Shown: positions 8,946 to 52,118 of the stretch, one piece after another
How the letters are laid out: each line of letters opens with the position of its first letter
Position numbering within the stretch: the first letter of the stretch is position 1
Source of the DNA: Thermoanaerobaculia bacterium
GTDB taxonomy: Bacteria > Acidobacteriota > Thermoanaerobaculia > Gp7-AA8
DNA length: 64,000 bases
Assembly: GCA_036009605.1 (NCBI GenBank)
Contig: DASYLL010000012.1
Coordinates: 4,810-68,809 of the forward strand
Direction of reading: 5' to 3'
Translations under genes and position numbers: made by a program
The notes under the pieces: generated by a model
The model's input: only the letters and a program-made list of their open reading frames with translations
What the model was told of the DNA's origin: nothing
Databases searched by the model: none

Positions 8946-9305
8946 TCAGTAGTAGAACTCTTCCCGCACGATCTTCCCGCCATCGACCGAATACAGCGCC
9001 ACTTCTTTCATCTTCACGCGCTCCCCGGTCTGCTTCGGCGTGATGTCGAATTCGAAGATCACCGTGAAGCGATCGCCGTTCACCATCGGTCCCTCGGCGC
9101 TCCCGGCATGCACTTCGTGATTCTCGAGCCACCACTGACTCTTGCCGCGGATCGCGGCGATGCCGCGCATCTCCGCCGGCATCGTCTCGTCGCCGCGCGC
9201 TTCCACGCTCACGATGTCATCGCTGTAGAGCGTGTCGATCGCTTCGAGATTCTTTCCGAGCTGGCAGAGCTCCACGAGTTTCGTTCCGACTTCTTTCGTA
9301 TCCAT
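8946..9305 (-). CDS. SnoaL-like / NTF2-fold protein
   Basis: ORF 8946..9380, trimmed to MDTKEV (ATG at 9305) preceded by GGAGG. Size and sequence pattern typical of SnoaL-like small proteins. Confidence 0.65.
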   Translation of the reverse strand: MDTKEVGTKLVELCQLGKNLEAIDTLYSDDIVSVEARGDETMPAEMRGIAAIRGKSQWWLENHEVHAGSAEGPMVNGDRFTVIFEFDITPKQTGERVKMKEVALYSVDGGKIVREEFYY

Positions 9306-9406
9306 TTGTTGCCTCCTGCTGCGGCGCGAACGATACCGCGCCGCCGCGTCACGAAACCGCAAACGCGTGAGCTTCCTCACGCCACCACTCCACGCGCGAA
9401 CCGACT

Positions 9407-23908: not shown

Positions 23909-23985
<77 letters not shown>

Positions 23986-24001
23986 AATTACGATTCATCC
24001 C

Positions 24002-24032
24002 ACGCCGCCGAAAGGCGGCGTTTGTCTTTTTT
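24002..24032 (+). terminator. Rho-independent terminator after tRNA-Asp
   Basis: acgccgcc-gaaa-ggcggcgt stem-loop (24002-24021) followed by ttgtctttttt. Confidence 0.65.
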
Positions 24033-24085
24033 GGACAAGAGAAACTTCGACGCTCCCCCGATGCAAACTCTCATTAGCACTCTCA

Positions 24086-24433
24086 TTAAGCGGTTTTGTA
24101 TTCTGCACGGTGCCGGCGCGGTTTTAAGTGACGGCGGCGCGCACGCCGGCGACGCCCGCCAGTTGGTGAGCTCGGGCGAGTCTTCGAGCGATCGAGCGGC
24201 TGCGTGAGCGCGGCTGCGGTGGGCGCCTCCCACCCTTCGATCATGTCCGCCATCATCTCGGCGTCGAAGTTGAAGTAGTGCTTTTCGACCGTCTTAACGT
24301 TCGTGTCGCCCATCATCTTGACGATCTTGAGGATGTGCGCGCCGTCGCGGACCTTCTGCGCGTACGTCAGTAGACCGCCGTACATGCCGTGTGTGATCGG
24401 CTGGAAATGCTCCTGAAGAATCCTCGAGGACAT
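24086..24433 (-). pseudogene. Tyrosine-recombinase (phage-type integrase) C-terminal remnant
   Basis: ITHGMYGGLLTYAQKVRDGAHILKIVKMMGDTNVKTVEKHYFNF aligns by eye to the HxLRxT...G...LGHxxxxxTxxxY catalytic tail. The R (HGMY) and H (MGD) are substituted, and ~250 N-terminal residues are missing. It abuts tRNA-Asp. Confidence 0.5.
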
Positions 24434-25044: not shown

Positions 25045-26937
25045 ATGACCTCCTTCATGCGGGGAACTGTGATGCGACAGAGACTGACCGTTGACGGACC
25101 AGAGCAGCGAGTCTCGCGTAATGCCATGACGGGTGCTCTCGTCCCTTTGCTCTTGCTCCTGGGCTCCTGCTCGTCATTCGACCCCGCCGTCCTCGACAAG
25201 CTGAAGAAGCTGCCGCAACTTCCAACGCTCGAATCGTTACTCAACAAGCCGCCAGTGACGACTTCGTTCGCCGACGCGCACGCCGAGGTCGCGTTTCTCG
25301 ACAACACGATCCCGGAGAACGCACGCGCGTTTCCGATGACCTCCATGCCGCGCGACCCACAAGGGCGCTATCTCCTCGGTCCCGGTCTCTATGAGTTGGA
25401 GGCGCAGAGCTACTGCATCAAAGCTGGTACGTACGCACCATCGGAGGGCGACGGCTATCTCTATGCGCCGCTGAAGGGACCGCGGGAGAAGGTCGTGCGC
25501 GCGATTCTCCGGCGGTCGGCCGAGAAGCCGGAAATCGAGCAACACGATGTGCAGGTCCTGCTGTGGGCGGTGATCGCGCGAGCGAAGCTGCGCGACATGA
25601 ATCCGCAACTGCAGCAGACGGCAACGGCGCTTCTGGATGCGCGCGAGCTCTTCGAGCTGAATGGCGGTGCGCTCGGCCTCATCCCTCCCGAGATGATCGA
25701 CAAGTACATGGCCAGGCTCTCGCCGCAGTTGCAGAAAGTCTTTCGCGCTGAGCAGCAGTTGCGGCAGCACCTGGCGCGCGCGAACGCAACGTATCAGCAG
25801 TATGAACAGCTGGCCGTGCTGGCAGGTCTCGCACCGGCCGCCGATATCATTCGTCCGACCCCGCGAGGGCGCTGGTCCTGGCATCCCGACGGTTACTTCA
25901 TCCGCTACTTTCCGCAGGGGTATCAGCGCACGAAGATGCAGGTGTACGTACCCCCGTCGATGACGATCGAGCGCGATGACGAAGGACGGATCGCCGCGGT
26001 CGCGGACGGACGCACGTTTCGCGTCGAGACGAGCTACGAGGGAAGCACGATCACGGAAGTGCGTTTGACCGCGTTCGGCAAGACGATCAAGCGCAAGCCG
26101 ACCGCGGTGCGCGCCAGCGCCCGCGTGTCCTCGCGCGTGAGCTCGATGGAGACGCAGCTCTCGGCGATGACGCTGGCGTCGGATGCGCCGTTCCCCGCGT
26201 CGAACGCCCGCCGTATCGTGGAGGCGGCAGTGTGGTCCCTGGTAGTACAGCAGGCACTCGCCGCGTACGTGAAGGAGAACTTCCCCTGCTCGGTAGAGTT
26301 CGTATCGCGGCTCTGGAATCTGCCTGCTTCCGCGCTGGCCGATCTGCTCGATGGCTTGCGCAACGAGGAGGTAACGTTCGATGCGTCGGGTAATGTCGCC
26401 GTGCCGGCGAACACCTCCTCACAGCGCCTGGCCTCGGGCGGCGAACCGGTGCGCGAGCCGGGCGAGCGATGGTTCGAATCCCTGCCCGATTGTCCGTGTC
26501 GTTGGAGCGACATCAAGTTCAACCAGCCCAGGCCCGACAAGAAAGGACGTCCGGGCCGTTGGATGGCCACGAACGGCTGCGGTCTGCAGACCTATCACCC
26601 GGACGCGGTGAAAGAAGCGCGCTGGACGCCAACGGACGAAGGTCCGGGGCAGCAATGCACCTATGACAAACACAACAAACTGATCACCGGCGGGTTGGCG
26701 GCGGGAACACCTGACTTCTACCCCCCCAACAATCAGCTTCCCGCACACTGGCTCGAGGACGTCGTGCCATTCTCGAACCGGAATCTGTTCGTGCTTTTCG
26801 ACGTGCCACCGATCTCGTGCGACATCTACATGAAACTCTATCCGCCGAATGAAGGAAACGGTTGTGCGGAGAACATCGTCGGCCCGTTGCCATCATCGAC
26901 AATGACGTGTTACGGGCAGACGCTATTAGCGCGCTGA
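25045..26937 (+). CDS. Large orphan lipoprotein, no recognisable domain
   Basis: Lipobox LLLLLGSC|SS (likely start ATG 25126). GC-rich third positions through most of the ORF. Cys-rich C-terminal part (LPDCPCRW, NGCGLQ, QQCTY). Confidence 0.6.
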   Translation: MTSFMRGTVMRQRLTVDGPEQRVSRNAMTGALVPLLLLLGSCSSFDPAVLDKLKKLPQLPTLESLLNKPPVTTSFADAHAEVAFLDNTIPENARAFPMTSMPRDPQGRYLLGPGLYELEAQSYCIKAGTYAPSEGDGYLYAPLKGPREKVVRAILRRSAEKPEIEQHDVQVLLWAVIARAKLRDMNPQLQQTATALLDARELFELNGGALGLIPPEMIDKYMARLSPQLQKVFRAEQQLRQHLARANATYQQYEQLAVLAGLAPAADIIRPTPRGRWSWHPDGYFIRYFPQGYQRTKMQVYVPPSMTIERDDEGRIAAVADGRTFRVETSYEGSTITEVRLTAFGKTIKRKPTAVRASARVSSRVSSMETQLSAMTLASDAPFPASNARRIVEAAVWSLVVQQALAAYVKENFPCSVEFVSRLWNLPASALADLLDGLRNEEVTFDASGNVAVPANTSSQRLASGGEPVREPGERWFESLPDCPCRWSDIKFNQPRPDKKGRPGRWMATNGCGLQTYHPDAVKEARWTPTDEGPGQQCTYDKHNKLITGGLAAGTPDFYPPNNQLPAHWLEDVVPFSNRNLFVLFDVPPISCDIYMKLYPPNEGNGCAENIVGPLPSSTMTCYGQTLLAR

Positions 26938-27378
26938 AGCCATGCTCGGGATGGCGAACGCGGCCGGCGAGAACGGCATGCTCATCGTCGCGTTCGCGAC
27001 GCATGGCGTGAGTTACGGCGGGACGCAATATCTGCTCTACGTCCGAACAGCGCTACAAGCGCTTCACAGGGGCAAGTCATCCTGTCCGCCGCGGCGGCGG
27101 GCCAATATGCCTACGACGACACCCGCCGCAACGGCGTCTTTACAGCCGCCGTCATCGATGCTCTCCGCTGCCAGGCCGCCATCGACGAGCGCGGCGTCGT
27201 AACGGTCGACGCCCTGGCTGCCTTCGTCGAGGAGCGCGTTCTTGCCTGGATCCGCAGTCACAGGGATATCGATGTCGCGCGCGCAACGCAGGTGATGTGG
27301 GAAGGTCAGGCGAAGAAGATGCCTGTCGCAGCCTGCCGCAATGCCGCGGTCGCACCGGCCTCCGGCTGTACGAGGTGA
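26853..27378 (+). pseudogene. Caspase-like (peptidase C14) domain remnant, N-terminally truncated and frameshifted
   Basis: Frame 2 (26942-): ENGMLIVAFATHGVSYGGTQYLL (His-Gly dyad region). Frame 1 (27076-27378): QVILSAAAAGQYAYDDTRRNGVFTAAVIDALRC...VTVDALAAFVEERV, where the expected catalytic Cys is Ala. A possible further piece VLRADAISALK lies in frame 0 (26853-26940). The frame change sits at the GGGG run at 27068-27071. Confidence 0.5.
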
Positions 27379-27515
27379 GCCGCCACGCGCTCGGCGACCG
27401 CGAAGCACGTTTTTATCGTTGCCGTGTCTCTACAGAGGAATGGGTCCGGCGTACGTATGGATCCAATATGACGTTTCTGCCTCCGTCCATCAGGACTGCT
27501 TTCCATAACTGATCG

Positions 27516-29339
27516 GTGCACGTCCACATCGGATCGATCATTAAGTTTCGCACTGAGGGCTTCAGCACCATGCTGTGCATCGTGGCTCGCTATGCGGGCC
27601 GGGTTCTTCGTTTCGAGCTCGCACCTGGGCGCGTCCGTTTGGGTTCAGCGCCCAATAACGACCTGTATATACCGTTCCCGGGCATTTCGCGGCGACATGC
27701 AGAGATCGAGCGTACGGAGCGCGGCGCTGTGATTCGCGACCTCGGTTCCAAGAACCTGCTCGTGGTCAACGGCGCGGCGGTGACCGTCGCGGAATTGCCT
27801 CTCAATGGCACGATTCGCGTCGGCCGCGCCACGCTTTCGCTCGAGGAAGCCCGGACATCCGACCTGCACCTCGCACTCGCGGTTGCGGAGAAAAGCCATG
27901 CGCAATCCGAAGAGACCCGCACCGAACACGAATCCTCGACGGGTGGCCCCGCGGCGGCATTGCAACTCGTTCGCACTTACGAGGGAATGTCACACCGCGT
28001 CTTTCTGCGAACCCTCGGCACGAGACTGAACGAAGCGTGCGAAGTCCTGGCCGCCGACACCGTGGCGCTCGGGAGTTGGACCGGCGACGGCCGAATCTCG
28101 ATCCGAACCATCGCGGGCTCGCTGCCTGATGACGACGTGCTGAGGCGAATCTCCCCAGGAAGACGGAAACGGCAGGTCACCAGACGACAATCCGAGAACG
28201 TCGTAGAGTCCGTTCACGGCCGGCACTGGTGCATGGCCGTGTTCGGACGAAATCACCGCCCTGCACAATGGCAACTGGACTTCATTGAATATCTGGCCTG
28301 TAAATCCTTTGGGCAGGAGTCCGAACCCGCTGCAGCGGAGGTTTCGGCCGACACGCCACTACCCGTTCCCGAATCGATGGTGATCGGCTCTTCCGCGCGC
28401 ATGCGCGAGGCAATGGACCAGCTCCGCGCCACTGCAGGGAGCGATCTGGACGTGCTGCTCACAGGAGAGACGGGTACGGGCAAAGAACTCTTTGCACGGC
28501 TCGTTCACGCCGCCGGCAGATACCCATCGGGACAGTTCGTGGCCATCAATTGCGCCGCAATTCCTTCCGAGTTGCTCGAGGCGGAGCTGTTCGGAGTGCA
28601 CGGCCGCGTCGCCACTGGCGTCGATCCGAGGGTCGGGCGCTTCGCGCAGGCCGAGGGAGGTTCGCTCTTCCTCGACGAGATCGGCGAGCTTCCGGACCGC
28701 CTTCAGGCAAAGCTGTTGCGTGTGCTTCAGGAGCGCGAGATTCTTCCGCTCGGTGCCGTCCATGCACGTCCGATTCATCTTCGCGTAATCGCCGCGTCGA
28801 ACCGCAATCTCCTCCAACTGTCGCGCGACGGCACATTCCGTCCCGATTTGTACTATCGCCTGAGTGCCCTCCGGTTTGACCTTCCCGCATTGCGGGACCG
28901 GCGCGAGGATATCCCCGGGCTCACGCTTGCGTTCGCGAATGAGGCCGCCGCGCGTCACCGGAAAAACGTGCGCGGTGTCAGCCGCTCCGCGCTGGCGGCA
29001 TTGATTGCCTACGACTGGCCCGGAAACATCCGCGAGTTACGGAATCAGGTCCAGCGCGCGATTCTGATCTGTGAGCCGAACGGACTGCTCGATGGAACGC
29101 ACTTCGAGCTGGAGTCGTCCGCGCATCCGGTTCCTCGTGCTCAACACGCTGTGACAGAGCAATCCACGCCGGCTGAGCCGCTCGCGCCGCTGCAACAGCA
29201 AGTCGAAGCTCTCGAGCGCGGCGCAATCTCGAAAGCGCTTCTCCAGTGTCACGGCAACCGCAGCGCCGCGGCACGGCTGCTGGGCATCACGCGCAACGGA
29301 CTCGCATTGAAGCTGCGAAGACTGGGGCTCTCGCAATGA
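27516..29339 (+). CDS. Sigma-54-dependent transcriptional activator with N-terminal FHA domain (FHA - central region - AAA+ - Fis-type HTH)
   Basis: FHA: RLGSAPNNDLYIPFPGISRRHAEI...RDLGSKNLLVVNG. AAA+: GETGTGKE, GSLFLDEIGEL, RPDLYYRL. HTH: NRSAAARLLGITRNGLALKLRRLGL. The start may be ATG 27570 (MLCIV). Confidence 0.85.
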   Translation: MHVHIGSIIKFRTEGFSTMLCIVARYAGRVLRFELAPGRVRLGSAPNNDLYIPFPGISRRHAEIERTERGAVIRDLGSKNLLVVNGAAVTVAELPLNGTIRVGRATLSLEEARTSDLHLALAVAEKSHAQSEETRTEHESSTGGPAAALQLVRTYEGMSHRVFLRTLGTRLNEACEVLAADTVALGSWTGDGRISIRTIAGSLPDDDVLRRISPGRRKRQVTRRQSENVVESVHGRHWCMAVFGRNHRPAQWQLDFIEYLACKSFGQESEPAAAEVSADTPLPVPESMVIGSSARMREAMDQLRATAGSDLDVLLTGETGTGKELFARLVHAAGRYPSGQFVAINCAAIPSELLEAELFGVHGRVATGVDPRVGRFAQAEGGSLFLDEIGELPDRLQAKLLRVLQEREILPLGAVHARPIHLRVIAASNRNLLQLSRDGTFRPDLYYRLSALRFDLPALRDRREDIPGLTLAFANEAAARHRKNVRGVSRSALAALIAYDWPGNIRELRNQVQRAILICEPNGLLDGTHFELESSAHPVPRAQHAVTEQSTPAEPLAPLQQQVEALERGAISKALLQCHGNRSAAARLLGITRNGLALKLRRLGLSQ

Positions 29340-30307
29340 ACCGCCGTGCCGAGACCGAAACCATCGATGTACTCTCCGGCAGCTTCGACCCGGGGATTGC
29401 GGTCATCCCACCCGGCACGCGTCTCGGATCCCGTTATGTCATTCGTGACGCCCTTGGGATCGGTGGTTCCTCAGTCGTCTATGCCGCTGACGACTCCCTG
29501 ACGTCTCGTGCCGTGGCCGTAAAAGTCCTGAGGCCGGATCGGTCAACCGAGACGGCGCTCGTTCGTTTCCGGAACGAGGCATTGATTGCACAGGGCATCG
29601 ACTGTCCGCACATTGTGCGCGTTTTCGACTACGCGGAGGGACCTCCCACATATCTGGTCATGGAGCTCGCGCGAGAGGGGTCGCTTCGACAAGCTCTGAA
29701 GGACGGACCGTTGCCCATCGGCCGAGCGATCGAGATTGCCGGACAGGTTCTTCGTGCGCTGTCTGCACTGCACGACCGCTTCATCATCCATTGTGACGTC
29801 AAGCCGGGGAACATTCTGATCGACGCCGGAGCACGGGTCGTCCTCGGTGATTTTGGACTGGCGCGTCAAACGAGCGAGTGCGCAGACGTCTGTAGCAGTC
29901 AGGGCGTGATCGGAACACTCGAATACCTCGCCCCGGAGCAGGCACTGGGACGAGGCCTCGACGCCCGCACCGACCTCTATGCCCTCGGAATCGTCCTGTT
30001 CGAGATGCTCACCGGAGCAGTGCCGCACCGTCGCGCATCCGCATTGGGAACGCTGCTCGCGCACATTCAGGAGCCGGCACCGAACGTACGGAAACTGCGC
30101 CCCACCACACCTCAATGGCTTTCCGAATTAATCGCGTGTCTTCTCGACAAGCAACCGCGAAAGCGCTTCGACTCTGCCAGCGCCGTTCTGCACGACCTTC
30201 CGCAGCACGATACAGAGTCCCTGCGCACCTGCATCTGTGATTGCACAGAATCGTGGCAGACCGGCGCACATAGTTGTCATGACGTGCGCAGCAAGTTGGC
30301 AATTTGA
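29336..30307 (+). CDS. Ser/Thr protein kinase, soluble kinase-domain-only protein with Cys/His-rich tail
   Basis: ORF 29246.., trimmed to ATG at 29336, which overlaps the activator stop (ATGA). GIGGSSVVY, AVAVKVL, HCDVKPGNIL, DFGLAR, GTLEYLAPEQ. Tail CICDCTESWQTGAHSCH. Confidence 0.9.
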   Translation: MNRRAETETIDVLSGSFDPGIAVIPPGTRLGSRYVIRDALGIGGSSVVYAADDSLTSRAVAVKVLRPDRSTETALVRFRNEALIAQGIDCPHIVRVFDYAEGPPTYLVMELAREGSLRQALKDGPLPIGRAIEIAGQVLRALSALHDRFIIHCDVKPGNILIDAGARVVLGDFGLARQTSECADVCSSQGVIGTLEYLAPEQALGRGLDARTDLYALGIVLFEMLTGAVPHRRASALGTLLAHIQEPAPNVRKLRPTTPQWLSELIACLLDKQPRKRFDSASAVLHDLPQHDTESLRTCICDCTESWQTGAHSCHDVRSKLAI

Positions 30308-30328
30308 GCCGGAAAAGGACTGAATTCG

Positions 30329-30344
30329 CGGCACAGCCGGTGCA
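30329..30344 (+). promoter_or_regulatory. Sigma-54 (-24/-12) promoter candidate
   Basis: cGGCACagccggTGCA versus consensus TGGCAC-N5-TTGCW. GG (30330-31) and GC (30342-43) are separated by exactly 10 nt. It lies 54 nt upstream of the ATG at 30398, which has a GGAGG SD at 30386-90. Confidence 0.55.
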
Positions 30345-30397
30345 GAAACAATGGTGAATCGGGGTCGTCCACCACAAACCAACAATCGGAGGTTTCT

Positions 30398-30790
30398 ATG
30401 TCTCGTGTGAGGCTTTTCGTTTCACTGCTTCTTGTCCTGAGCGCTGTTGCAGTCTTTGCGGATGACCCGCCGCCGGGAACTGTCGTACAGCGGCAGTGGC
30501 TGCGTCCCTGTCTCGACTCGGGGTCGGTCACGTACGACCAGTACGAGTACAGGTGCACGTCCGCCGAGTCGAGCGTTCAGGTCTACAACATCTACACGCG
30601 TGCCGAGTACCTGAAGGACGCCGTCTACCGGGTCGATCGCTCGCCGCTTTCGAACAGCAACTTCTACGCGTACGCCGTCAAGCAGTACACCGAGGTGGCA
30701 GATACCAAACGGCTCGACTCGGCGGCGTTGGTCATTAAGCGCGATATTTCCACGAAGACGCCGGGGTGGGCATACAAGAAGAAGGATTAG
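30398..30790 (+). CDS. Small secreted protein (130 aa)
   Basis: Signal peptide MSRVRLFVSLLLVLSAVAVFA|DD. First gene after the sigma-54 promoter candidate. Confidence 0.6.
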   Translation: MSRVRLFVSLLLVLSAVAVFADDPPPGTVVQRQWLRPCLDSGSVTYDQYEYRCTSAESSVQVYNIYTRAEYLKDAVYRVDRSPLSNSNFYAYAVKQYTEVADTKRLDSAALVIKRDISTKTPGWAYKKKD

Positions 30791-30793
30791 CGT

Positions 30794-31924
30794 ATGCAGC
30801 GGCAGCCCATAGTGAGTATGCGCTCCGGCCGGTTCGGCCGTCTCTCCCTGCGAGCGGCCGCTGCAGCGATCACCGGAGTTCTCTCGTTTCTCTCATGTAC
30901 AACGGTGGACGGCCCCGATCAACCACCAACACCAATCGCTACGCCCGACCGCAGCGCCATTCAATGGGATGCGGTCGGGATCGCATCCCTGCCGATACAC
31001 ACTGCGGCCGTGATCGCCGATCTCACCCTTCTCCTTGATGGCCGTTTGTGGCCAGGCTATACGCTCGCGTCGCATCCCCTGCTGGTCGATGTCGCCGGAG
31101 AGGCGTTGTACTGCATCGGCCGTTGCGTGGCCGGACTGGACGGTCCTCTGCGAACCGACGAGATCGCAGGCCGTTTCACTGGACGATACTCGTTCGTTCC
31201 CGGCACAACAGTCGGGCTGGCCGACGAACAAACGGTCCTCATCGTGAGCTTCGACCCGAATCGCGAGGTTCTGAAAGACATCGTCTTCACAGCCATTCAC
31301 GAGGGATTTCACGCCTACTATCAGGCCGACCGCGAAAACGACGTACCGCTCGAGATGCGCCTTCCCGGCAATGCGCAACGTAGTGCATACGCATCACGCG
31401 CGGAGCTTCAGAACACATACACTGCCGCGGCGGAACGGAACGGATTCCTCTCCCGCGAGATTCGCGCGCTGGCGTGGGCCGCGAAGGCAGGCGCGAAGGA
31501 GCGGGCCGACGACGGAGAGTTGCGCGCTTGTCTCGATCAGTTCCTCGAATTACGGCGGATCCGACACAGCGAGCTTCCGACTCCCGTAATGGAGGAGGAC
31601 CTCTGGGAGCGAACCGAAGGGGTTCCGCTCTACCTGGAGCGCAAAGCCGCGACTCTCCTCGGGCGTTCCGACACAAACGTTCTCGAACAGATATTCGACT
31701 ACGGGGTCGTACCGGATCTCTCGATGGTGCCGTACTTCTCGATCACGGGCGCACTCGAAGCCGTGATTCTCGATCAACTCACGCGCGACGAATGGCGCAC
31801 CTGGGTCTTCCCCGGGCGATCGGGAGAAGGACTGTCGCTCTACGACGCGGTCGTCCGCGCTCGGAGCTCACTCCGCCCGGGGTTGCCCGTCCCATGTCCC
31901 GCCAATGCAGGAGCCGAATCATGA
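30794..31924 (+). CDS. Lipoprotein with HExxH motif (putative zinc metallopeptidase-like)
   Basis: Lipobox VLSFLSC|TT. HEGFH at 31298-31312 (FTAIHEGFHAYYQ). Starts 3 nt after the previous stop. Confidence 0.6.
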   Translation: MQRQPIVSMRSGRFGRLSLRAAAAAITGVLSFLSCTTVDGPDQPPTPIATPDRSAIQWDAVGIASLPIHTAAVIADLTLLLDGRLWPGYTLASHPLLVDVAGEALYCIGRCVAGLDGPLRTDEIAGRFTGRYSFVPGTTVGLADEQTVLIVSFDPNREVLKDIVFTAIHEGFHAYYQADRENDVPLEMRLPGNAQRSAYASRAELQNTYTAAAERNGFLSREIRALAWAAKAGAKERADDGELRACLDQFLELRRIRHSELPTPVMEEDLWERTEGVPLYLERKAATLLGRSDTNVLEQIFDYGVVPDLSMVPYFSITGALEAVILDQLTRDEWRTWVFPGRSGEGLSLYDAVVRARSSLRPGLPVPCPANAGAES

Positions 31925-33348
31925 ATATGCGCCACCTCGTGTCTCTCACTATCGCCGCGTCCCTCCTCGTCCTTGGTGCGGCTGCTGAGCCCACCGGCCT
32001 TCCGTCTCGGGTTCACATCTCCGATCCGCCGTCACGGTGGAAGTGCGAGCGGCCGGAGGAAGCGCCGGAGTGGCTGGTCGCTGAGGGAGTCACGAGACCT
32101 CCGATCCTCGCTTGCCGCGATGACGCGGGGGCGATACTGCTGCTCTCCTACACCGATCTGTCGACCTCGCGCACCGGTTATTCGGTCGATACGCTCGTCA
32201 GCGGGGCCGAAGATCAACTGCCCGGTTCATGGCGCGTGCAGAAGAAGAGCTCCGCGTTCACCACGAGGCAGACGCCGTCGCGGCTGGCCGTCACACGCGT
32301 GAGACTCGTCGGTAGCGGGAACGGCTTGACCTTCGCGGCGGGCGGGTCGACACCAACGCTGGTCCTGATGGAACAGGTGCCGCTGGCGTATTCGGAACCC
32401 CCGAGTACTACGGCGCTGCACCAGTACATTCTTGCGTTCGAGGTTCGAACCTCGCTGCCACCGGAACCGCGGCGAAAGGCAGCCATCGACGAACGCGAAA
32501 GGGAGTTGGAGCGCTGGGTCGATACCCTCGTCGTCGATCACTCGATTGCCCTGCTGCAGCCATCGGAGTTCGAGTTCCTCTCCGCGACCCGCGTCGGCGC
32601 TTCCACGGCGTCCCCCCGACCGGCCGCCCCCGCGCCCGTTGCACCCTCGCCTGCGGAAGCGACCGCAAAAGCGTTCATCGCCGGCGACTCCGGGGAACTA
32701 GCCGAGCCGACGGCTCGCGAGCTCGAGGAACTGGCGCGCACGGAATCGACCCTGGGATCCGCCGCCGCGGAGACCCTGCGGCGCGCCCGTCTGCGTGCAG
32801 CGTCCGCACGCACGCCCGAGGTCTGGCGCACAATCGCGACGAACACGCCAAAAGCGACCCTGCCAGGACTGGTGGCGGTGTTTCTATCCGCCGCGCTATC
32901 AAACAATGACGCGGTTACCGCCAACGCCGTGATCGCGTCCGCCACGGAGAGCTCGCTAACGCTCGCCAGCTTCAGCGACACCGATCTCCAATCCATCCTC
33001 GTGGGTCTTGAGTCGTTTCCTGGTTTGCTCGTCGACGGCGGCGGGCCGGCGCTCGCCATCGACGCAGCCCGCGACGGTGAACGCCTTGCGCGACTGCTGG
33101 CCCGATCCGGTGTGACGTTCATCGACATCGCGACACTGGCGCGACCAATCCCGCCGGGTGAAACGCGCTGGAAATTGCTGCGCTCGACCCCCGCAAACTC
33201 TCTGCCGGTGTTTGTGCGTTCCGGCCAAAATCTCGGCCGCCTCGTCCGTGACGGCGCAACCGCACGCTTCGAACGATTCGCAACTCTCGTCGATGTCATG
33301 CACGCCGTCAGAGCCGCCGGCACGCGGAACAGTGCAATGGCGCGGTAG
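31921..33348 (+). CDS. Secreted hypothetical protein (475 aa)
   Basis: ORF 31474.., trimmed to ATG at 31921, which overlaps the upstream stop (ATGA). Signal MNMRHLVSLTIAASLLVLGAAA|EP. Ala/Pro-rich linker mid-protein. Confidence 0.55.
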   Translation: MNMRHLVSLTIAASLLVLGAAAEPTGLPSRVHISDPPSRWKCERPEEAPEWLVAEGVTRPPILACRDDAGAILLLSYTDLSTSRTGYSVDTLVSGAEDQLPGSWRVQKKSSAFTTRQTPSRLAVTRVRLVGSGNGLTFAAGGSTPTLVLMEQVPLAYSEPPSTTALHQYILAFEVRTSLPPEPRRKAAIDERERELERWVDTLVVDHSIALLQPSEFEFLSATRVGASTASPRPAAPAPVAPSPAEATAKAFIAGDSGELAEPTARELEELARTESTLGSAAAETLRRARLRAASARTPEVWRTIATNTPKATLPGLVAVFLSAALSNNDAVTANAVIASATESSLTLASFSDTDLQSILVGLESFPGLLVDGGGPALAIDAARDGERLARLLARSGVTFIDIATLARPIPPGETRWKLLRSTPANSLPVFVRSGQNLGRLVRDGATARFERFATLVDVMHAVRAAGTRNSAMAR

Positions 33349-34665
33349 TTACGGTATCCGGCGCCGCGCCAGGACACCCCCGACCCCCGCCATCGCACAA
33401 ACCAGCGGCATCACCGGCACCCGAAACCGCGTCTCACCAAAAGTCCCTCCGGCCGCGGCGATCATGTACGCGGCCGACCCCACCACGATCAAAACGGCAG
33501 CCGTCCAGCGCATCGACACGAATCCGTACGCCGCCAGCAGATATAGCAGCAACAGGAAGACGCCGAGTCCCACATGCAGGAGGTCTCGCGCGCTGATTCC
33601 GCCTTGCTGCACGCGCTCGGCGAATCGCACCTTTGGCCACGGCAGCCCGAAGAGTGCGCCGAGCTCGCCTCCGCCGCTGGAGATCAGCGTGTAGAACATC
33701 CCTTTGGCGTGAATCACCGCGTACTGCGGCAGATTGCCTTTCATCACTTTCATGCCTTCGCGCCGCATGTATGCGTAGCGCTGGCCGCGGCTCCAGGTGC
33801 GCTGCTCCGGGTGCAGTTGCAGGTAGCGATCGTCGTCCACCCAATCCTCGCCGCCTTTCCATCCCATCTGCAGCGCCTGCTCGTGTTGCGAGATCCCCTT
33901 CTGCTCGACCAGGATCTGTGCGCCACCGTAAAAGTACGCGGCCATGGCGCTGATCGCGGAGAAGCCCGGGAAACCGTACGCGCGATTGCGCAGCGACCAT
34001 GGAGCGAGCAGCGCGAACGCCAGCGTTCCGGCGAGTACGGCGTGAGCGACACCGCGCCACTGTCGCGCGAACAACGCGCGCAACGCCAGGAAGCCAACGA
34101 CGCAGGCAGGCAGGAACAGCGTGACCGGACGGACGTACGCGGCGGTGACGAACAGGAGCATTGCGCCGATGAGATGCGCCGCACGCGCGGACTGCGAATA
34201 CCGCACCGAGAGATATACCGCCCACACCAGGAGCGTCGCGGCGATGGTCTCCGTGAGCATGTAGACCGTGAGTGCAATCGATGCGGGCTCGATTGCAAAG
34301 AGTGCCGCGCCGACCAGTCCGACGCGATCGTTTCTACTCAGTGCGCGTCCGAGCGCGCAGACACCGATGGTCGTCAAAAGAGACAGGAGAATCTGGATGG
34401 CGATCGTCACGCCCTGCACGTGTCCGAGCGCGACGCCCGGAACCAGGAGCAGCGGGTAGCCGGGTGTGCGAATGACATGCGGTTCGCCGCGAAACGTGAA
34501 CGTCCCGTACGCCAGCAGATCCTCCGCCAGGCCAACGTAGGTGATCGTGTCGATCGCAAAGGAGACGGACCGACCGGTAGCGGACCATGCACCGATTGCC
34601 ACTGCGCCGCGAAGAACGAGCGCCAATAGGAGAATCCATCCGAGGGATTTCCGTCGCGCCTGCAT
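33349..34665 (-). CDS. Polytopic membrane glycosyltransferase (GT39/ArnT/PMT_2-like)
   Basis: ORF 33349..34701, trimmed to MQARRK (ATG at 34665). About 10+ TM segments. N-terminal DTITYVGLAEDLL...GEPHVIRTPGYPLLL loop typical of the family. Confidence 0.7.
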   Translation of the reverse strand: MQARRKSLGWILLLALVLRGAVAIGAWSATGRSVSFAIDTITYVGLAEDLLAYGTFTFRGEPHVIRTPGYPLLLVPGVALGHVQGVTIAIQILLSLLTTIGVCALGRALSRNDRVGLVGAALFAIEPASIALTVYMLTETIAATLLVWAVYLSVRYSQSARAAHLIGAMLLFVTAAYVRPVTLFLPACVVGFLALRALFARQWRGVAHAVLAGTLAFALLAPWSLRNRAYGFPGFSAISAMAAYFYGGAQILVEQKGISQHEQALQMGWKGGEDWVDDDRYLQLHPEQRTWSRGQRYAYMRREGMKVMKGNLPQYAVIHAKGMFYTLISSGGGELGALFGLPWPKVRFAERVQQGGISARDLLHVGLGVFLLLLYLLAAYGFVSMRWTAAVLIVVGSAAYMIAAAGGTFGETRFRVPVMPLVCAMAGVGGVLARRRIP

Positions 34666-34747
34666 AAACGTGCGATGGTAGTCGAAAAAGACCAGGCCCA
34701 CCGCACAATACCGATTGGTATTGACGTCGTGCGCTGTGTAATCCCAA

Positions 34748-40207: not shown

Positions 40208-41476
40208 TTACTCTTTGCGTTCGAGATTGCCGAGGCGCGTTTCCAGATTCTCGATCGTCCGCTGCTGCTCCTGAATCACTTTCGTGAGCACGGCAACGAC
40301 GTCCATCGACGAGAGCCCCTTCCGATCGTTCGTTGCGACGAGATCCGGCACGTCTTCAGCGATGAAGCCGATGTGCGTCTCGCCGGGATTCGCTTTGTAC
40401 GCGAAGCTCACCGGCTCCAGCGCTTTCAACGCATCAAGTGCGGCGTTGCCGTCGAGTTGATGAATGTCCCGCTTCACGTCGCGGCTGGAGGCATTGACCC
40501 AGTTGCCGGCGTCGAGACGCGCGCCGCTGCTGTGGTGAATCTGGAACGTCGGCACCGCGACGCCGAGGCCGACGCGGCCGGTGGAGTCGACAACGAGCGA
40601 GTTGCCGGGCGCGGCGGAACGGACGATGAACGGATTCGACTCGTGATTGACGTCGCGCACAAAGAAATTCGCGTCGTTCGCCACGATGTCCCACGCCTGG
40701 AACGGTGATGCGCTCTGCTCCATACGGATGATCGGAGAGACGGGCACGCTGATGGTCAGGTCTCGCGCGGGCGTCGACGTGCGGAGACCGATGCGACCGG
40801 TGCTGTCGAGATAGAGCGCGTTGTTCGGCGTGGCGCCTTCGATCAGCAGCGGTACGGTTGCAGCGGTGAGATCTTCGACGAAGAACTTGTTCGCACCGCC
40901 GCTATTGATGTCGTTCGCGCTCAATTGCCAGTCGGTCGTCGCGAAGCCGACGGCGGCCGAGGTGTCTTCGAACTTGAGACGCGTGTTGTTCTCTTTCAGC
41001 TTGGCTGAGGCGAGCCCATAGGACTCGGCGTTGGTGCAATCGGCACCGGCGCAGACGCCGCCCTGCGCGGAGACATCGTCCGAGAAGAACGTTTCCACGG
41101 CCGGCCGCAGATGCCGCGGCGACGCAGTCGCGCGCTCGACCCCGTCCGGTGAAACGATCGTTCCGTTGGCAATCGTGAACGAGCCGGACTGCACATCCGC
41201 GTTTGCAGTGCGCAATTCGTACGAGTACACGCCGTCAGCGAGCTTGTCGACCCGCAGCATCGGATTGCGGCCGGCAGCGAACGTATCGGTGATCACCTCG
41301 CCGTCGGGTCGTTGTACGGAGAGAACTGTGGCCGATGGATCGATCGCTGACTGCCATTCGATCGTTCTGTCGGTCGTGACGAGCCGTGCGGCTCGCTGTT
41401 CAACATCGGCCGCGAACGCAACGACAGGAAGGAGTGCTACGAGAAAAGAGAATGAGAACCGGGCTTTCGAACGCAT
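40208..41476 (-). CDS. Secreted 'tail-fibre' domain protein with C-terminal peptidase-S74 intramolecular-chaperone domain
   Basis: Signal MRSKARFSFSFLVALLPVVAFA. C-terminus SSRDVKRDI...LDALKALEPVSFAYK...HIGFIAEDVPDLV...MDVVAVLTKVIQEQQRTIENLE is typical of the endosialidase chaperone domain. Confidence 0.75.
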   Translation of the reverse strand: MRSKARFSFSFLVALLPVVAFAADVEQRAARLVTTDRTIEWQSAIDPSATVLSVQRPDGEVITDTFAAGRNPMLRVDKLADGVYSYELRTANADVQSGSFTIANGTIVSPDGVERATASPRHLRPAVETFFSDDVSAQGGVCAGADCTNAESYGLASAKLKENNTRLKFEDTSAAVGFATTDWQLSANDINSGGANKFFVEDLTAATVPLLIEGATPNNALYLDSTGRIGLRTSTPARDLTISVPVSPIIRMEQSASPFQAWDIVANDANFFVRDVNHESNPFIVRSAAPGNSLVVDSTGRVGLGVAVPTFQIHHSSGARLDAGNWVNASSRDVKRDIHQLDGNAALDALKALEPVSFAYKANPGETHIGFIAEDVPDLVATNDRKGLSSMDVVAVLTKVIQEQQRTIENLETRLGNLERKE

Positions 41477-42932: not shown

Positions 42933-44825
42933 TCAGTTCTCCGCTACGACGATGACCCGGTCATCCGTACTAAACGTGACACTCGCAGCCTTCGGAGGAT
43001 TCACATGGACTCCATCGCCGCTGCCTCCGGCCAGTCGATATCCGATGGCCACTTCTCCGCGGCGGCGCGCGCATTCGACGACGTGCCAGTAGCTCATCGG
43101 CTTTCCGAGAGCGACATAGTCGGACGCGGGACGCAGGTAAATCTCCGATCCGTCGGAGTCGAAGATGTCGTCAAACACCGCGCGGAGATCGCGATTCTCC
43201 GTGACCTGTGCGACCAGGAGACTGGTGAGATTTTCGCTGACGATGAAGTCGTCGGCCTGCGTGATCTCGGCCAGCTCGCGGTTGCGAACGTCGAGCATCT
43301 CGCTGACGATCGAGTAGCGGTTCGTGCCGCTCTTCGCCTCGATGTCGCGCAGATGCAGCAGCGTGACGAGCGTCTTCGCGTCGGCCTTCTGCACCGGCAG
43401 GTCGTCGGCATAGCAGAGGACGATGATGTGCTCGTACTGTTCGGGATCGACGCTCTCGAGCGTGGCGCGATCGCTGGAGTTGCCGCGACGAAAATCGAGC
43501 TCCTGCCGCACGAGAAGAGGCCGAAGCGCCTCGATGTCGTCGGCAATGCTCGGACTGTCGGCAACGACCGTCATCACCGAACCGGGAGCAACATAGTTGT
43601 CGAGCTCGCGAATGATGATCGGCGCGCGGGCGCTCCATCCGAGGAGCAGCGTCTTCTCCGGAGTGGCAACCGATGTCGGCCTCTCCACGAGCAGCGACGC
43701 GTCCATCGTCGGCGTGTGCCTGCCGATCCGCACGGCCGCCATGTCGGCAGCGATGACGATCGCTTCGTCACCCGCGACAAAAGCGCGATCCATCGGAGGA
43801 TTCAGCTGCACGATTCCGTCAGCGGTCTTCACGCCAAGGAGAGACGACGTGTCGAACGCGAAGAGTGCGTCCTTGAACGACACTCCGTCCAGTGCCGCGT
43901 CGCGCTTGAAGTAGATCTCGTCTCCGCCGAAGTCGAGCAGTTCCGTGTACACACCGGAGAGGCCGGTCTGCCGGCATGTCTGCGCGATGACGCGCGCAAT
44001 GGTCTCGCCGGTCTCGATGAGCTGCGCTTCGTCGCGTCCGACCAGGCGGGCCGGCTCCATGTTCCTGCGCTCTTTGATCTCGGCAACGATGTGGAACTTC
44101 TCCGCTCGCCGATCGGGATGATTCGTCACCGCCAGAATCGACTTGATCACCTCAGCATCCGGATCATCCCCCTCGGGTGAGAGAACCACGATCGCGCGAG
44201 CAGCGTTGAAATTCACGAGCCGCAGATCGCCGAGGTCGATGGGATTGCCGCGACGGCAGACGACGGTGGTCGTCTTCGCATCGTCGATGCGCTCGCGCAC
44301 TTCATCGTCCATCGCGACCTTGTCGCGATCGGCCATGATCACGATGACGTTGCGCTTGCGGTGCTCGTTGCCAAGGATGAGCTCCCCCATGATGGAGAAG
44401 ATGCGATCGTTCCAGCCGAGGATCACGATGTGGTTGGTCTCGGCGACGAGCGAGCGGCCTTTGCGGAGCTCTTCGATCTGATTGCCGACACCGTTGGAGA
44501 TGAGACCGATGAGCGTGCCGACGATGAAGACACCGCCCAGCGTGACCAGGAGCATCATCACCAGATAGGACACGGGTCCGCTGTCGCCGCCCATCGTTCC
44601 GGCGTCGAGCGTGCGCATCAGGTTGTGCCACATCAGCGCAGGGAACGACAGCGCTGCCCCATCCTCGGCCGGCGGAGCTGCGCCGAGGAGCGTGAGCAGG
44701 ATCGTTGCGACCGCGAGAAATGCAACGGTGACGATCGCGAGCCACGCGATCAGGGCAGGCGTTCCGCGAGAGAGCGTATTGTCAAACGCATAGCGCAGAC
44801 GCTGCCGGAGCGTAAAAGTTTTCAT
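42933..44825 (-). CDS. CASTOR/POLLUX-related putative ion channel with two RCK/TrkA-like domains
   Basis: ORF 42933..44966, trimmed to MKTFTLRQRLRYAFDNTLSRG (GAGGAG SD). LDAGTMGGDSG...VTLGGVFIVGTLIGLI pore-like region. IVILGWNDR and LLLGWSARAP RCK starts. Confidence 0.75.
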   Translation of the reverse strand: MKTFTLRQRLRYAFDNTLSRGTPALIAWLAIVTVAFLAVATILLTLLGAAPPAEDGAALSFPALMWHNLMRTLDAGTMGGDSGPVSYLVMMLLVTLGGVFIVGTLIGLISNGVGNQIEELRKGRSLVAETNHIVILGWNDRIFSIMGELILGNEHRKRNVIVIMADRDKVAMDDEVRERIDDAKTTTVVCRRGNPIDLGDLRLVNFNAARAIVVLSPEGDDPDAEVIKSILAVTNHPDRRAEKFHIVAEIKERRNMEPARLVGRDEAQLIETGETIARVIAQTCRQTGLSGVYTELLDFGGDEIYFKRDAALDGVSFKDALFAFDTSSLLGVKTADGIVQLNPPMDRAFVAGDEAIVIAADMAAVRIGRHTPTMDASLLVERPTSVATPEKTLLLGWSARAPIIIRELDNYVAPGSVMTVVADSPSIADDIEALRPLLVRQELDFRRGNSSDRATLESVDPEQYEHIIVLCYADDLPVQKADAKTLVTLLHLRDIEAKSGTNRYSIVSEMLDVRNRELAEITQADDFIVSENLTSLLVAQVTENRDLRAVFDDIFDSDGSEIYLRPASDYVALGKPMSYWHVVECARRRGEVAIGYRLAGGSGDGVHVNPPKAASVTFSTDDRVIVVAEN

Positions 44826-45031
44826 GAACTCCTCTTGAAATGGTCCCGACCCGGTATATGGACGGGTTGGACGGTAGCAGAGACTAGCGCTCACGTCTCG
44901 TGAAACGTGCGTCAGCCGAACGTAAAGATGCGCTGCGAACCGGCATTCGGGGCAAACCTGCGACAAGACCTACGGGTACGCCGTGCTACCCTGCCGCGCC
45001 CTCGGGGTCCTGCCTCATGAAGGAGAGTCTG

Positions 45032-45785: not shown

Positions 45786-46775
45786 ATGGCGAAACGAACG
45801 ACCGGAGCGGCTGCGATCGCGGCTGCAGCGGAGCGGACGCAGAACATCGACAATTCCACGCGACAGGCAAGTCAGCCGGAACAAAGCTATCAGGACGACA
45901 CCAGCGGAACCGTCGACGAAGGCTCGGGCGACGAGCCGAGTTGTGCGATCAAGCAGTTGCCATCGCGTCTCCAGTTCAAAGCGGCCGAGGTCGCATCGTT
46001 GATCAATCCGGTCAATGAACCATCCTTCGGGCTCACTGCAGCAGTCTCTGAAGGAGTGTTGCCGACACCGCTGGCCATCGCGGTCGCGACCGCGAAATAT
46101 TGGGGAGCGAGACCACGCACGCTCACCGTCAGCTTCCTGGAAACGACACCCACGGAACTGCGGCGACGCATCCTCGGCCATCTGAATGCCTGGACGAGAA
46201 CCGGCGGTGTGCGATTTCAGGAGACCGCGAGCGGCGGTCAGGTGCGAATCTCTCGTGGCGCGGGCGGCTACTGGTCCTACCTCGGGACCGACGTCCTGCT
46301 CATCCCGCCCGGCCGGCCAACCATGAATCTGCAGTCCTTCACCATGAACACCGCGGAGAAGGAGTACACGCGCGTCGTCCGCCACGAGGCGGGTCACACG
46401 CTGGGGTTCCCGCACGAACACATGCGCAAAGATCTCGTGAAACTCATCGACCCGGCAAAAGCCTACGACTACTTTCTTCGCACGTATGGATGGGACAGGA
46501 CCACCGTCAAACAGCAGGTGCTGACCGCGCTCGACGAGCGGACGATCATGGGCACGCCGGTCGATCAGGATTCGATCATGTGCTACCAGCTTCCGGGCTC
46601 GATCACGACCAATGGACGTCCGATCCGCGGCGGCACCGACATCAACAACAGCGACTACGCGTTCGCAGGACGCATTTACCCGCGAAGCCTCGCGGCCGCC
46701 TCGACGGGCTGTTCCGAAACGTCGGACGACTGGCCCGAAAGCGAAGACGTGGACGTGAACAGCTACGCATCGTGA
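45786..46775 (+). CDS. Astacin-like (metzincin) zinc metalloprotease, no detectable signal peptide
   Basis: HEAGHTLGFPHEH = HExxHxxGxxHE signature. AAGGAGG SD. The N-terminal ~60 aa are acidic/low-complexity, not hydrophobic. Confidence 0.75.
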   Translation: MAKRTTGAAAIAAAAERTQNIDNSTRQASQPEQSYQDDTSGTVDEGSGDEPSCAIKQLPSRLQFKAAEVASLINPVNEPSFGLTAAVSEGVLPTPLAIAVATAKYWGARPRTLTVSFLETTPTELRRRILGHLNAWTRTGGVRFQETASGGQVRISRGAGGYWSYLGTDVLLIPPGRPTMNLQSFTMNTAEKEYTRVVRHEAGHTLGFPHEHMRKDLVKLIDPAKAYDYFLRTYGWDRTTVKQQVLTALDERTIMGTPVDQDSIMCYQLPGSITTNGRPIRGGTDINNSDYAFAGRIYPRSLAAASTGCSETSDDWPESEDVDVNSYAS

Positions 46776-52040: not shown

Positions 52041-52118
52041 TGCACACGGATCGACACGAACGCGCGGCGACGGTGGCGTGACGCCCCGTTTTCGCGCGGA
52101 GCGTGTCTTGACGATGGA

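Follow-up and report, generated by a model that had tools for sequence, protein, structure and literature searches.

Here we describe a five-gene cassette from a soil acidobacterium of the Thermoanaerobaculia (Acidobacteriota) lineage, located at 27516-33348 of a 64,000-nt stretch of contig DASYLL010000012.1 (GCA_036009605.1), which was analysed as a whole and is called the window below. All five genes lie on the plus strand within 5.8 kb: (i) the first (27516-29339) encodes a homologue of the bacterial enhancer-binding proteins (EBPs) of the FHA type; its open reading frame opens at GTG 27516 (607 aa), but translation probably begins at ATG 27570 (MLCIVARY..., 589 aa), as it is with MLC(I/L)VARY that most of the listed homologues open; (ii) the second (29336-30307, 323 aa) encodes a soluble, minimal Hanks-type Ser/Thr kinase; (iii) g3 (30398-30790, 130 aa) encodes an exported protein; (iv) g4 (30794-31924, 376 aa), a putative lipoprotein with an HEGFH motif; and (v) g5 (31921-33348, 475 aa), another exported protein. 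The tetranucleotide ATGA at 29336-29339 holds both the stop codon of the EBP and the start codon of the kinase, g3 and g4 are separated by 3 nt (TAG cgt ATG, 30788-30796), and g4 and g5 overlap by 4 nt, again as ATGA (31921-31924). The 3' end of g5 abuts the 3' end of a convergent PMT_2-type glycosyltransferase gene (33349-34701, minus strand). An earlier note on this DNA, made from the sequence alone, had reported the overlap of activator and kinase, the solubility of the kinase, the tight three-gene operon, the lengths of the 130-aa and 475-aa products and the HEGFH of the lipoprotein; all of these particulars are confirmed here.

The block is a real unit, inherited together, because gene order, junctions and promoter bases are kept while the flanks differ. 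All five genes occur in the same order on six other Thermoanaerobaculia/Acidobacteriota contigs (L001-L006), none of which shares the flanking genes of the window, and the flanks of L001 and L002, the two loci with gene calls, are also unlike each other. All six orthologous loci retain a stop/start overlap of EBP and kinase, in the form TGATG or GTGA, and both the TAG-nnn-ATG junction and the ATGA overlap of g4 and g5 are kept in all seven sequences compared. Close homologues of g4 and g5 amount to 24 and 20 clusters, all of them at least 71% identical; those with names belong to Acidobacteriota or Thermoanaerobaculia metagenome-assembled genomes, and the g4 and g5 matches lie mostly on shared contigs. 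The co-conservation that the earlier note had proposed as a check on its model is thus found, with the block intact in six contigs whose flanks are unrelated.

The 90-nt gap between the kinase gene and g3 holds a sigma-54-type promoter, GGCACagccgGTGCA (GGCAC-agccg-GTGCA; 30330-30344, plus strand), whose -24 GG occupies 30330-30331 and whose -12 GC occupies 30342-30343. It begins 22 nt past the kinase stop and 55 nt before the ATG at 30398, and transcription of the trio operon is predicted to start near 30355. The element, cGGCAC-agccg-gTGCA, agrees with TGGCAC-N5-TTGCW at 9 of 12 positions, and its GG-to-GC spacing is exactly 10 nt; it had been noticed before as a plain GG-N10-GC, and in the form GGCAC-N5-GTGCA it stands closer to the consensus than was then said. 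The pattern GGCAC-N6-TGCW has a single match on either strand of the 64 kb, with 0.86 expected, and therefore the chance of such a match in the 90-nt gap on the coding strand is about 6e-4 (arithmetic from the expected count). Across the seven loci GGCAC and GTGCA are invariant, and four of the five spacer positions vary. A search of 27000-34000 for a sigma-70-like promoter found none.

Immediately before this promoter, the segment 30215-30329 (plus strand), which overlaps the 3' tail of the kinase gene and extends 22 nt into the intergenic gap, appears to be the best candidate for an upstream activating sequence (UAS). In the seven-locus alignment it contains the blocks ATTGCrCAGrATCGTGGC, CTGCGCACA and TTGGCrATTTGAAnCGGAAATGCC, which are kept at the DNA level although the encoded kinase tails differ in sequence and frame: beyond about residue 290 the kinase is not conserved as a protein, and the orthologue tails are unalignable and end in different frames. 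Such conservation of DNA within a non-conserved protein tail fits the earlier guess that the UAS lies inside the 3' part of the kinase gene. At the start of the predicted 5' untranslated region, the 12-mer AATCGGGGTCGT (30357-30368, plus strand) is invariant in all seven loci; neither a match in Rfam nor, by a consensus fold, a covarying structure was found for this region.

The EBP has the Pfam domains FHA (residues 40-103), Sigma54_activat (289-453), AAA_lid_14 and HTH_8 (563-602), with E-values of 3.5e-54 for the AAA+ domain (PF00158) and 3.7e-12 for the Fis-type HTH_8. Walker A (GETGTGKE, 28464-28487) and Walker B (LFLDEIGE, 28665-28688) are both intact, and the translation also contains FRPDLYYRL and GNIRELRN. 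The FHA domain (27633-27824, plus strand; PF00498, E 1.1e-12) has Rv1747 FHA-1 as its best relative in the PDB (E 2.6e-9) and carries LGSAPNND (27639-27662), SRRH (27687-27698) and GSKN (27744-27755). Between FHA and AAA+ lies a central region of about 170 aa that is conserved within the family and has no Pfam match in any of 29 members. The 120 best homologues are 42-86% identical to the EBP and combine FHA, AAA+ and HTH in all but three N-terminally truncated entries; every named one belongs to Thermoanaerobaculia or Acidobacteriota.

The L1 loop of the EBP reads RVATGV (28605-28622, plus strand) at the position of GAFTGA in canonical bacterial EBPs; in an alignment to ZraR (1ojl), GAFTGA pairs with RVATGV. 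The motif is unchanged in the six orthologues and is present in 97 of the 109 sequences that could be parsed among the 120 best homologues, the remainder being mostly xxATGV. Across paralogues at 42-86% identity the loop is under stricter conservation than its surroundings, which argues that it is functional and not decayed. A literature search for RVATGV gave nothing relevant. As a background set, and solely for that use, we scanned metagenomes for the L1 region with general EBP peptides; 61 of the 80 loci recovered had GAFTGA, and the set is mostly canonical. Four scan loci have GVATGV or RTATGV loops (L017 1801; L018 701; L026 124; L047 6055), and on these short contigs no FHA domain, family-type N-terminal region or kinase was detected; xxATGV loops thus seem to extend beyond the FHA family.

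The kinase (Pkinase, PF00069, E 1.1e-47) has a GIGGSS Gly-rich loop, the beta3 Lys in VAVKVL, HCDVKPGN, DFG and APE. It is a non-RD kinase, with HCD in which Cys takes the place of Arg, and by hydropathy it lacks any hydrophobic stretch long enough for a membrane helix. At one orthologous locus (L002, 9229-9232, with 9229-9384) the kinase frame is broken after residue 236, and what remains of the domain is read in a different frame, with the EBP, the promoter and the trio intact; either the kinase has become a pseudogene or the assembly is wrong here.

The association of kinase and EBP recurs beyond the five-gene block. All four further paralogue EBP loci that were inspected have a Hanks kinase adjoining the EBP: L014 and its orthologue L096 encode a kinase (901 and 908 aa, with TPR or FG-GAP tails), the EBP and an unannotated or Flg_new_2 protein; L015 encodes the EBP, a convergent 867-aa kinase and then a 1405-aa Lectin_C/Flg_new_2 protein; and L097 encodes an 880-aa kinase, the EBP, a 200-aa protein and a 1544-aa Peptidase_M10/PKD/BACON protein. 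The catalytic domains of these kinases are 44-49% identical to that of the window and their EBPs 44-47% identical to the window EBP, and this similarity of identities suggests that kinase-EBP pairs were duplicated together. Around the mostly canonical EBPs of the background set a kinase was found nearby in only 2 of the 80 loci (583 kb in total), beside one receiver-type and one GAF-type EBP, neither with FHA. Kinase adjacency, to the same kinase subfamily in the loci inspected, therefore appears specific to the FHA-bearing RVATGV EBP family. One of the background loci (L083, 767-6840) represents another kind of kinase-EBP neighbourhood: a 1418-aa protein that combines Pkinase, nSTAND1 and WD40 domains is encoded by a gene overlapping the start of a GAF-type canonical EBP gene. 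The genes that lie 3' of the paralogue pairs (L014 9875-11557; L096 8941-10881; L015 11648-15865; L097 9387-14926) code for large proteins that are probably secreted or exposed at the surface (Flg_new_2, Lectin_C, Peptidase_M10 with PKD, BACON), in agreement with a published view of sigma-54 as a regulator of the cell exterior.

Sites resembling a sigma-54 promoter also occur in the gap before the next gene at the paralogue loci: TGGAATCCsGATTGCA in L014/L096 (42 nt before the gene), the candidate CGGCAACCTACTTGCA in L015 and a weaker, 8/12 match, TGGTTTGAATATCGCA, in L097. Up to about 110 nt upstream of the candidate promoters in L014, L015 and L097 there are half-sites of the form TTGGC(R)/(Y)GCCAA, many of them paired in inverted orientation (L014 9729-9817; L015 11300-11413; L097 9140-9253; in the window, 30296-30320), with Poisson P values of 0.001-0.02 per locus for a motif picked post hoc, after the data had been seen. 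They are possible family-wide UAS elements. A simple 9-of-12 score against the sigma-54 consensus was tried and abandoned, as it does not discriminate in GC-rich DNA (100 matches in 254 kb, with shuffles giving equal numbers or more).

The three genes behind the promoter encode proteins with signal or lipoprotein leaders, as judged by inspection and hydropathy, and all three lack a match in Pfam, NCBIfam, PADLOC and the PDB by profile and sequence searches, in line with what had been said of them before. The PADLOC matches of the kinase (PD-T4-6, mad6) and of the EBP (RtcR/PspF) reflect generic domain similarity and were not accepted as a sign of a defence role. The signal peptide of g3 probably ends ...AVFA|DD, and its homologues share two conserved Cys and the motifs VKQ, AxV and W.Y. 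In g5 a conserved N-terminal domain (W40, C42, C65...) is followed by a Pro/Ala linker and a lineage-variable C-terminal domain, two alternative versions of which are found among homologues. The leader of g4 (...GVLSFLSC, Cys35) fits a PROSITE-style lipobox by inspection; an equivalent Cys is present in most close homologues, and several distant ones have a Cys after an N-terminal hydrophobic stretch.

The g4 family is small, with 20 representative clusters among 1.84 billion proteins in an exhaustive profile search, and its putative active site is well kept. HEGFH (31298-31312) and WERTEG (31604-31621) are invariant; H169, E170 and H173 do not vary among the 24 close homologues and persist in 20 of 21 aligned members, and distant members (22-29% identity) retain HExFHxx[YF]Q and EExxWExxEG. 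E268 and E272 are invariant and E275 is present in at least 90% of members, all three on helix 265-288. An AF2 model built on a diverse alignment (pLDDT 74, pTM 0.77) shows four strands and then the HExxH helix (160-183); a model from the 24 close homologues only (pLDDT 33) was unusable, distant homologues being needed in the alignment. Our best guess is that g4 is a zinc peptidase lipoprotein, a guess that we hold with about as much doubt as belief.

The trio itself is an old module that also occurs without the regulators, since g3-like, g4-like and g5-like genes stand in the same order on the distant contigs L007, L008, L009, L011 and L013. In L011 a fragment of an EBP homologue (E 1.6e-64; 6134-6907), convergent to the trio and downstream of it, is cut by the contig end, so that its N-terminus and L1 loop fall outside the contig. 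Upstream of the same trio (106-2612) two paralogues of 350 and 485 aa are encoded, for which Pfam has no match on record.

Taken together, these features are best explained by a co-inherited circuit that leads from the kinase through the FHA-EBP and a sigma-54 promoter to the exported trio, an explanation that we place midway between acceptance and rejection. We infer the following course. The EBP-family AAA+ activator and its cognate minimal Hanks kinase would be made together from their overlapping genes; the kinase would control assembly or ATPase activity of the EBP, either directly or by a phospho-dependent contact with the N-terminal FHA-like domain; the EBP would bind the conserved DNA at the 3' end of the kinase gene and remodel the sigma-54 RNA polymerase at GGCAC-N5-GTGCA, thereby switching on the three-gene operon; and the products would be three envelope proteins: the lipoprotein, probably a zinc peptidase of the HExxH...E kind, and two that are secreted, one small and the other a larger partner. 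Domains, gene order and overlaps, the changed motifs, the conserved promoter, the co-conservation of the block and the recurrent pairing of kinase and EBP are observed; the sigma-54 dependence, the role of the EBP as the activator, the direction from kinase to EBP and its dependence on FHA, the peptidase activity and the role of the trio belong to the proposed course. Since GAFTGA and the GR Arg of the FHA domain are both replaced, the step from FHA to phosphothreonine and that from EBP to sigma-54 would have to operate through non-canonical motifs. The earlier note had proposed much the same, and its interpretation stands in part. It is supported by the co-conserved block, the invariant -24/-12 bases, the recurring and co-diversifying kinase-EBP pairs and the conserved DNA in the kinase tail. 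Two of its steps, the activation of sigma-54 by the EBP and the reading of phosphothreonine by FHA, are weakened by motif changes that it had not noticed: the contact loop RVATGV, whose F to A change is published as inactivating, and the missing canonical GR Arg. Its word self-contained is too strong for a kinase without a sensor and a trio found elsewhere without regulators (L013), and the exported proteins are at most putative effectors.

A number of observations weigh against this circuit, and it is convenient to take them with the alternatives that they favour. The first concerns sigma-54. By the GAFTGA rule, sigma-54 activators vary in this motif only conservatively (for example GAYTGA or GSFTGA), and the cassette EBP falls outside it. 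GAFTGA has been called essential, replacements of F3 other than Tyr being classed as inactive (Francke et al. 2011, PMC3162934); the GAFTGA-defective homologues TyrR, DhaR and HupR are sigma-70 dependent (PMC3162934); and proteins of Desulfovibrio and Solibacter usitatus with GVATG_V, again F3 to A, are tabulated as GAFTGA-defective (PMC3162934, supplementary file 3). A 2025 survey of sigma-54 retained only proteins bearing GAFTGA (PMC12316311). As regards the factor itself, rpoN is present in Acidobacterium capsulatum and Solibacter usitatus, which belong to other lineages than the cassette host (PMC3162934, supplementary file 1). The cassette EBP could then be a homologue that does not depend on sigma-54, like TyrR, VpsR and HupR, and the near-palindrome an operator, or a promoter served by another, canonical EBP; GGCAC-N5-GTGCA would bind a dimer of the EBP or another protein, and the EBP would activate or repress a sigma-70-type promoter of the trio.

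The cis elements speak on both sides of this alternative. The promoter core is near-palindromic (GCAC-N7-GTGC) and so possibly a dimer operator, and its reverse-complementary GCAC and GTGC resemble the dyads of NtrC-type proteins; at the equivalent place the L014/L096 paralogue has the non-palindromic TGGAAT-N5-TTGCA, and in the window separate conserved blocks farther upstream are better candidates for the UAS than the near-palindrome itself. Matches as good as those at the paralogue loci (9/12; 8/12 in L097) turn up about 10 times per 20 kb when this GC-rich DNA is shuffled, and the paralogue promoters therefore have positional support only. No sigma-54 site was found upstream of the distant trios in L008, L011 and L013, and the last of these, in a 6.5-kb contig without an EBP or a kinase, follows a divergent FGE-sulfatase gene and has an apparent sigma-70-like TTGTCA-N18-TACGAT. 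No such promoter was seen in 27000-34000, and the site of the cassette lies at a distance from the start codon that suits a promoter. The strict conservation of RVATGV across paralogues is also unlike that of a degenerate relic, and a GVATGV protein, DVUA0100, has been associated with sigma-54 promoters (PMC4641369). This alternative survives best of those considered, and on balance we find it unlikely.

The second set of observations concerns the input to the EBP. In alignments to the FHA domains of Rv1747 and FhaA, the phosphate-contacting GR Arg is replaced by Ser43, and the GR position reads GS or GA in all 23 motif-parsed members among the 120 homologues; a phospho-independent, YscD-type FHA-like Pfam model scores almost equally to the FHA model. 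As the Arg is missing and the two models are close in score, phosphothreonine reading by this domain is plausible but not secure. Kinase and EBP might therefore be partners without such recognition, the Arg-less FHA serving as a phospho-independent module of interaction or oligomerisation, in which case the kinase might phosphorylate the linker or the central domain of the EBP, or be merely co-expressed with it and have other targets. The conserved central domain without a Pfam match could be the real input domain, and the window kinase, a bare catalytic domain with no sensor domain, also sits uneasily with a complete circuit. The remaining FHA contacts point the other way, S58-R59-x-H61 and S78-K-N80 (S-R-x-H and S-x-N) being invariant in 29 of 29 aligned members; mycobacterial FHA domains also bind phosphothreonine through a Ser-Arg pair, and kinase adjacency is restricted to the FHA-bearing RVATGV family. 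We rank this explanation close behind the sigma-54-independent one and likewise regard it as unlikely.

That the five genes are neighbours by descent only, in a narrow clade, and form no regulatory unit is a very remote prospect: the full five-gene loci do all come from close relatives (70-84% protein identity), but their flanks differ at every locus around an intact block, the stop/start overlaps are kept, the promoter bases stay the same although the spacer between them varies, paralogues too come as kinase-EBP pairs, and the distant trio of L011 again has an EBP homologue beside it. The remaining difficulty for the kinase-to-trio circuit lies in its output. The g4 model has no Foldseek neighbour in the PDB or BFVD (best E 0.08 and 0.17; TM at most 0.25), and its zincin fold is therefore not confirmed; likewise, no Pfam peptidase model matches g4 significantly, the best being DUF6782 (E 0.028) and Peptidase_M1 (E 0.23), in one member each.

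A broader reading seems to us possible, with doubt outweighing confidence: RVATGV FHA-EBPs and their adjacent Hanks kinases may constitute a lineage-expanded, one-to-one signalling system in which a non-GAFTGA loop engages sigma-54 and an Arg-less FHA domain reads the cognate kinase. If true, it would be a Ser/Thr-kinase counterpart of the histidine-kinase/NtrC pairs, possibly with a co-adapted sigma-54, and the GAFTGA filter applied in genome surveys (PMC3162934, PMC12316311) would hide a whole class of sigma-54 activators for envelope and secreted proteins in Acidobacteriota. With RVATGV in at least 100 distinct proteins near sigma-54-type promoters, either the filter discards real activators or the same engine does something else, and both outcomes would be informative on the contact between AAA+ activators and sigma-54. 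Ever since the Myxococcus work it has been proposed that Hanks kinases are linked to sigma-54 activators, but a simple genetic model is lacking; the present set of kinase, EBP, promoter and output, only 5.8 kb long, would lend itself to reconstruction in vitro or in another host. Its output comprises three protein families without annotation, one of them an HExxH lipoprotein family of only 20 clusters.

As regards the surroundings, the earlier note had placed the block in an accessory region next to tRNA-Asp. The tRNA-Asp gene (23909-23985) does lie 3.5 kb upstream of the cassette, and the flanks are variable; the GC content of the block (0.63), however, equals that of the window (0.625) and gives no sign of recent transfer, so that only the variable flanks suggest accessory status. 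After the tRNA gene comes a hairpin with a T-run that resembles a terminator (about 24000-24033). A possible integrase remnant (24086-24433, minus strand), whose C-terminus looked integrase-like by eye, had no Pfam or PDB support and was dropped. Just upstream of the cassette, a gene for a 630-aa protein (25045-26937) with a sub-threshold AMOP match (E 4e-5; 24.2 bits vs a cut-off of 25) is not conserved beside the cassette in other genomes. Downstream of the cassette there are accessory-looking genes for a Peptidase_S74 protein (endosialidase chaperone, tail-fibre-like; 40208-41476, minus), a Castor/Pollux-type RCK channel protein (42933-44966, minus) and an astacin-like (M12A) protein (45786-46775, plus). 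Farther on lies a defence-like cluster (48690-57710), comprising a 1485-aa SF1 helicase with an RNase_H_2-like domain (48690-53147, minus), a TerB_N/TerB/TerB_C protein (51594-54236, plus), a BrxC/BrxD-type ATPase (54233-55522, E 6e-155) and a DEAD/Cas3-like helicase (55494-57710); since the SF1 helicase and TerB frames overlap on opposite strands, one of the two calls may be spurious.

The cassette shares some of its features with systems described elsewhere, and differs from each of them. Jelsbak, Givskov and Kaiser are said to have described in 2005 FHA-domain EBPs of Myxococcus xanthus (as cited in PMC12288465) and to have proposed that these take their input from Hanks-type Ser/Thr kinases. 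The cassette EBP has the same order of FHA, AAA+ sigma-54 domain and HTH, in hosts that are likewise rich in Hanks-type kinases. In contrast to the Myxococcus proteins, its family has RVATGV and no GR Arg, a contrast that rests on the general GAFTGA rule for functional EBPs; it also has a family-specific central domain, and every member examined is paired with a kinase of one co-diversifying subfamily.

In PpkA-Fha1 (type VI secretion) and PknH-EmbR (M. tuberculosis), threonine phosphorylation is read by FHA proteins and, as in the cassette, the gene of a Hanks kinase adjoins that of an FHA protein which turns phosphorylation into an output, in the case of EmbR a transcriptional one. However, and in spite of these similarities, there are differences: (i) Fha1 is a scaffold and not a transcription factor, and EmbR is of the OmpR/SARP type and acts with sigma-70; (ii) the FHA domains of Fha1 and EmbR keep the GR Arg, whereas that of the cassette does not; and (iii) PpkA and PknH are membrane sensor kinases, whereas the cassette kinase is a bare, soluble catalytic domain. 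A parallel for g4 is provided by the M1 aminopeptidases (gluzincins of the MA(E) clan), which have HExxH-x18-E, the Glu lying within WLNEGF. Like these, g4 has an HExxH helix after a beta-sheet and a downstream W-x3-E-G glutamate motif; unlike them, it has about 100 residues between HExxH and the candidate Glu, with three inserted helices.

The closest parallel to the contact loop is DVUA0100 of Desulfovibrio vulgaris Hildenborough, a GVATGV protein that Kazakov et al. (2015, PMC4641369) associated with type III secretion operons and their sigma-54 promoters. In that computational prediction the substitutions in GVATGV "do not prevent" activation (PMC4641369). Both proteins have an xVATGV loop with F3 to A and a predicted sigma-54-type promoter at envelope or secretion targets, and for both sigma-54 activation is a prediction and not an experimental result. 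They differ in the N-terminal region, which in DVUA0100 is long and unassigned, neither an FHA domain nor a kinase partner having been reported for it; in the first motif position, which is G in DVUA0100 and R in the cassette family; and in the target, which for DVUA0100 is type III secretion. Set beside these systems, the cassette follows the known scheme of a Hanks kinase, an FHA-EBP and a sigma-54 promoter, with an xVATGV loop for which there is one computational precedent.

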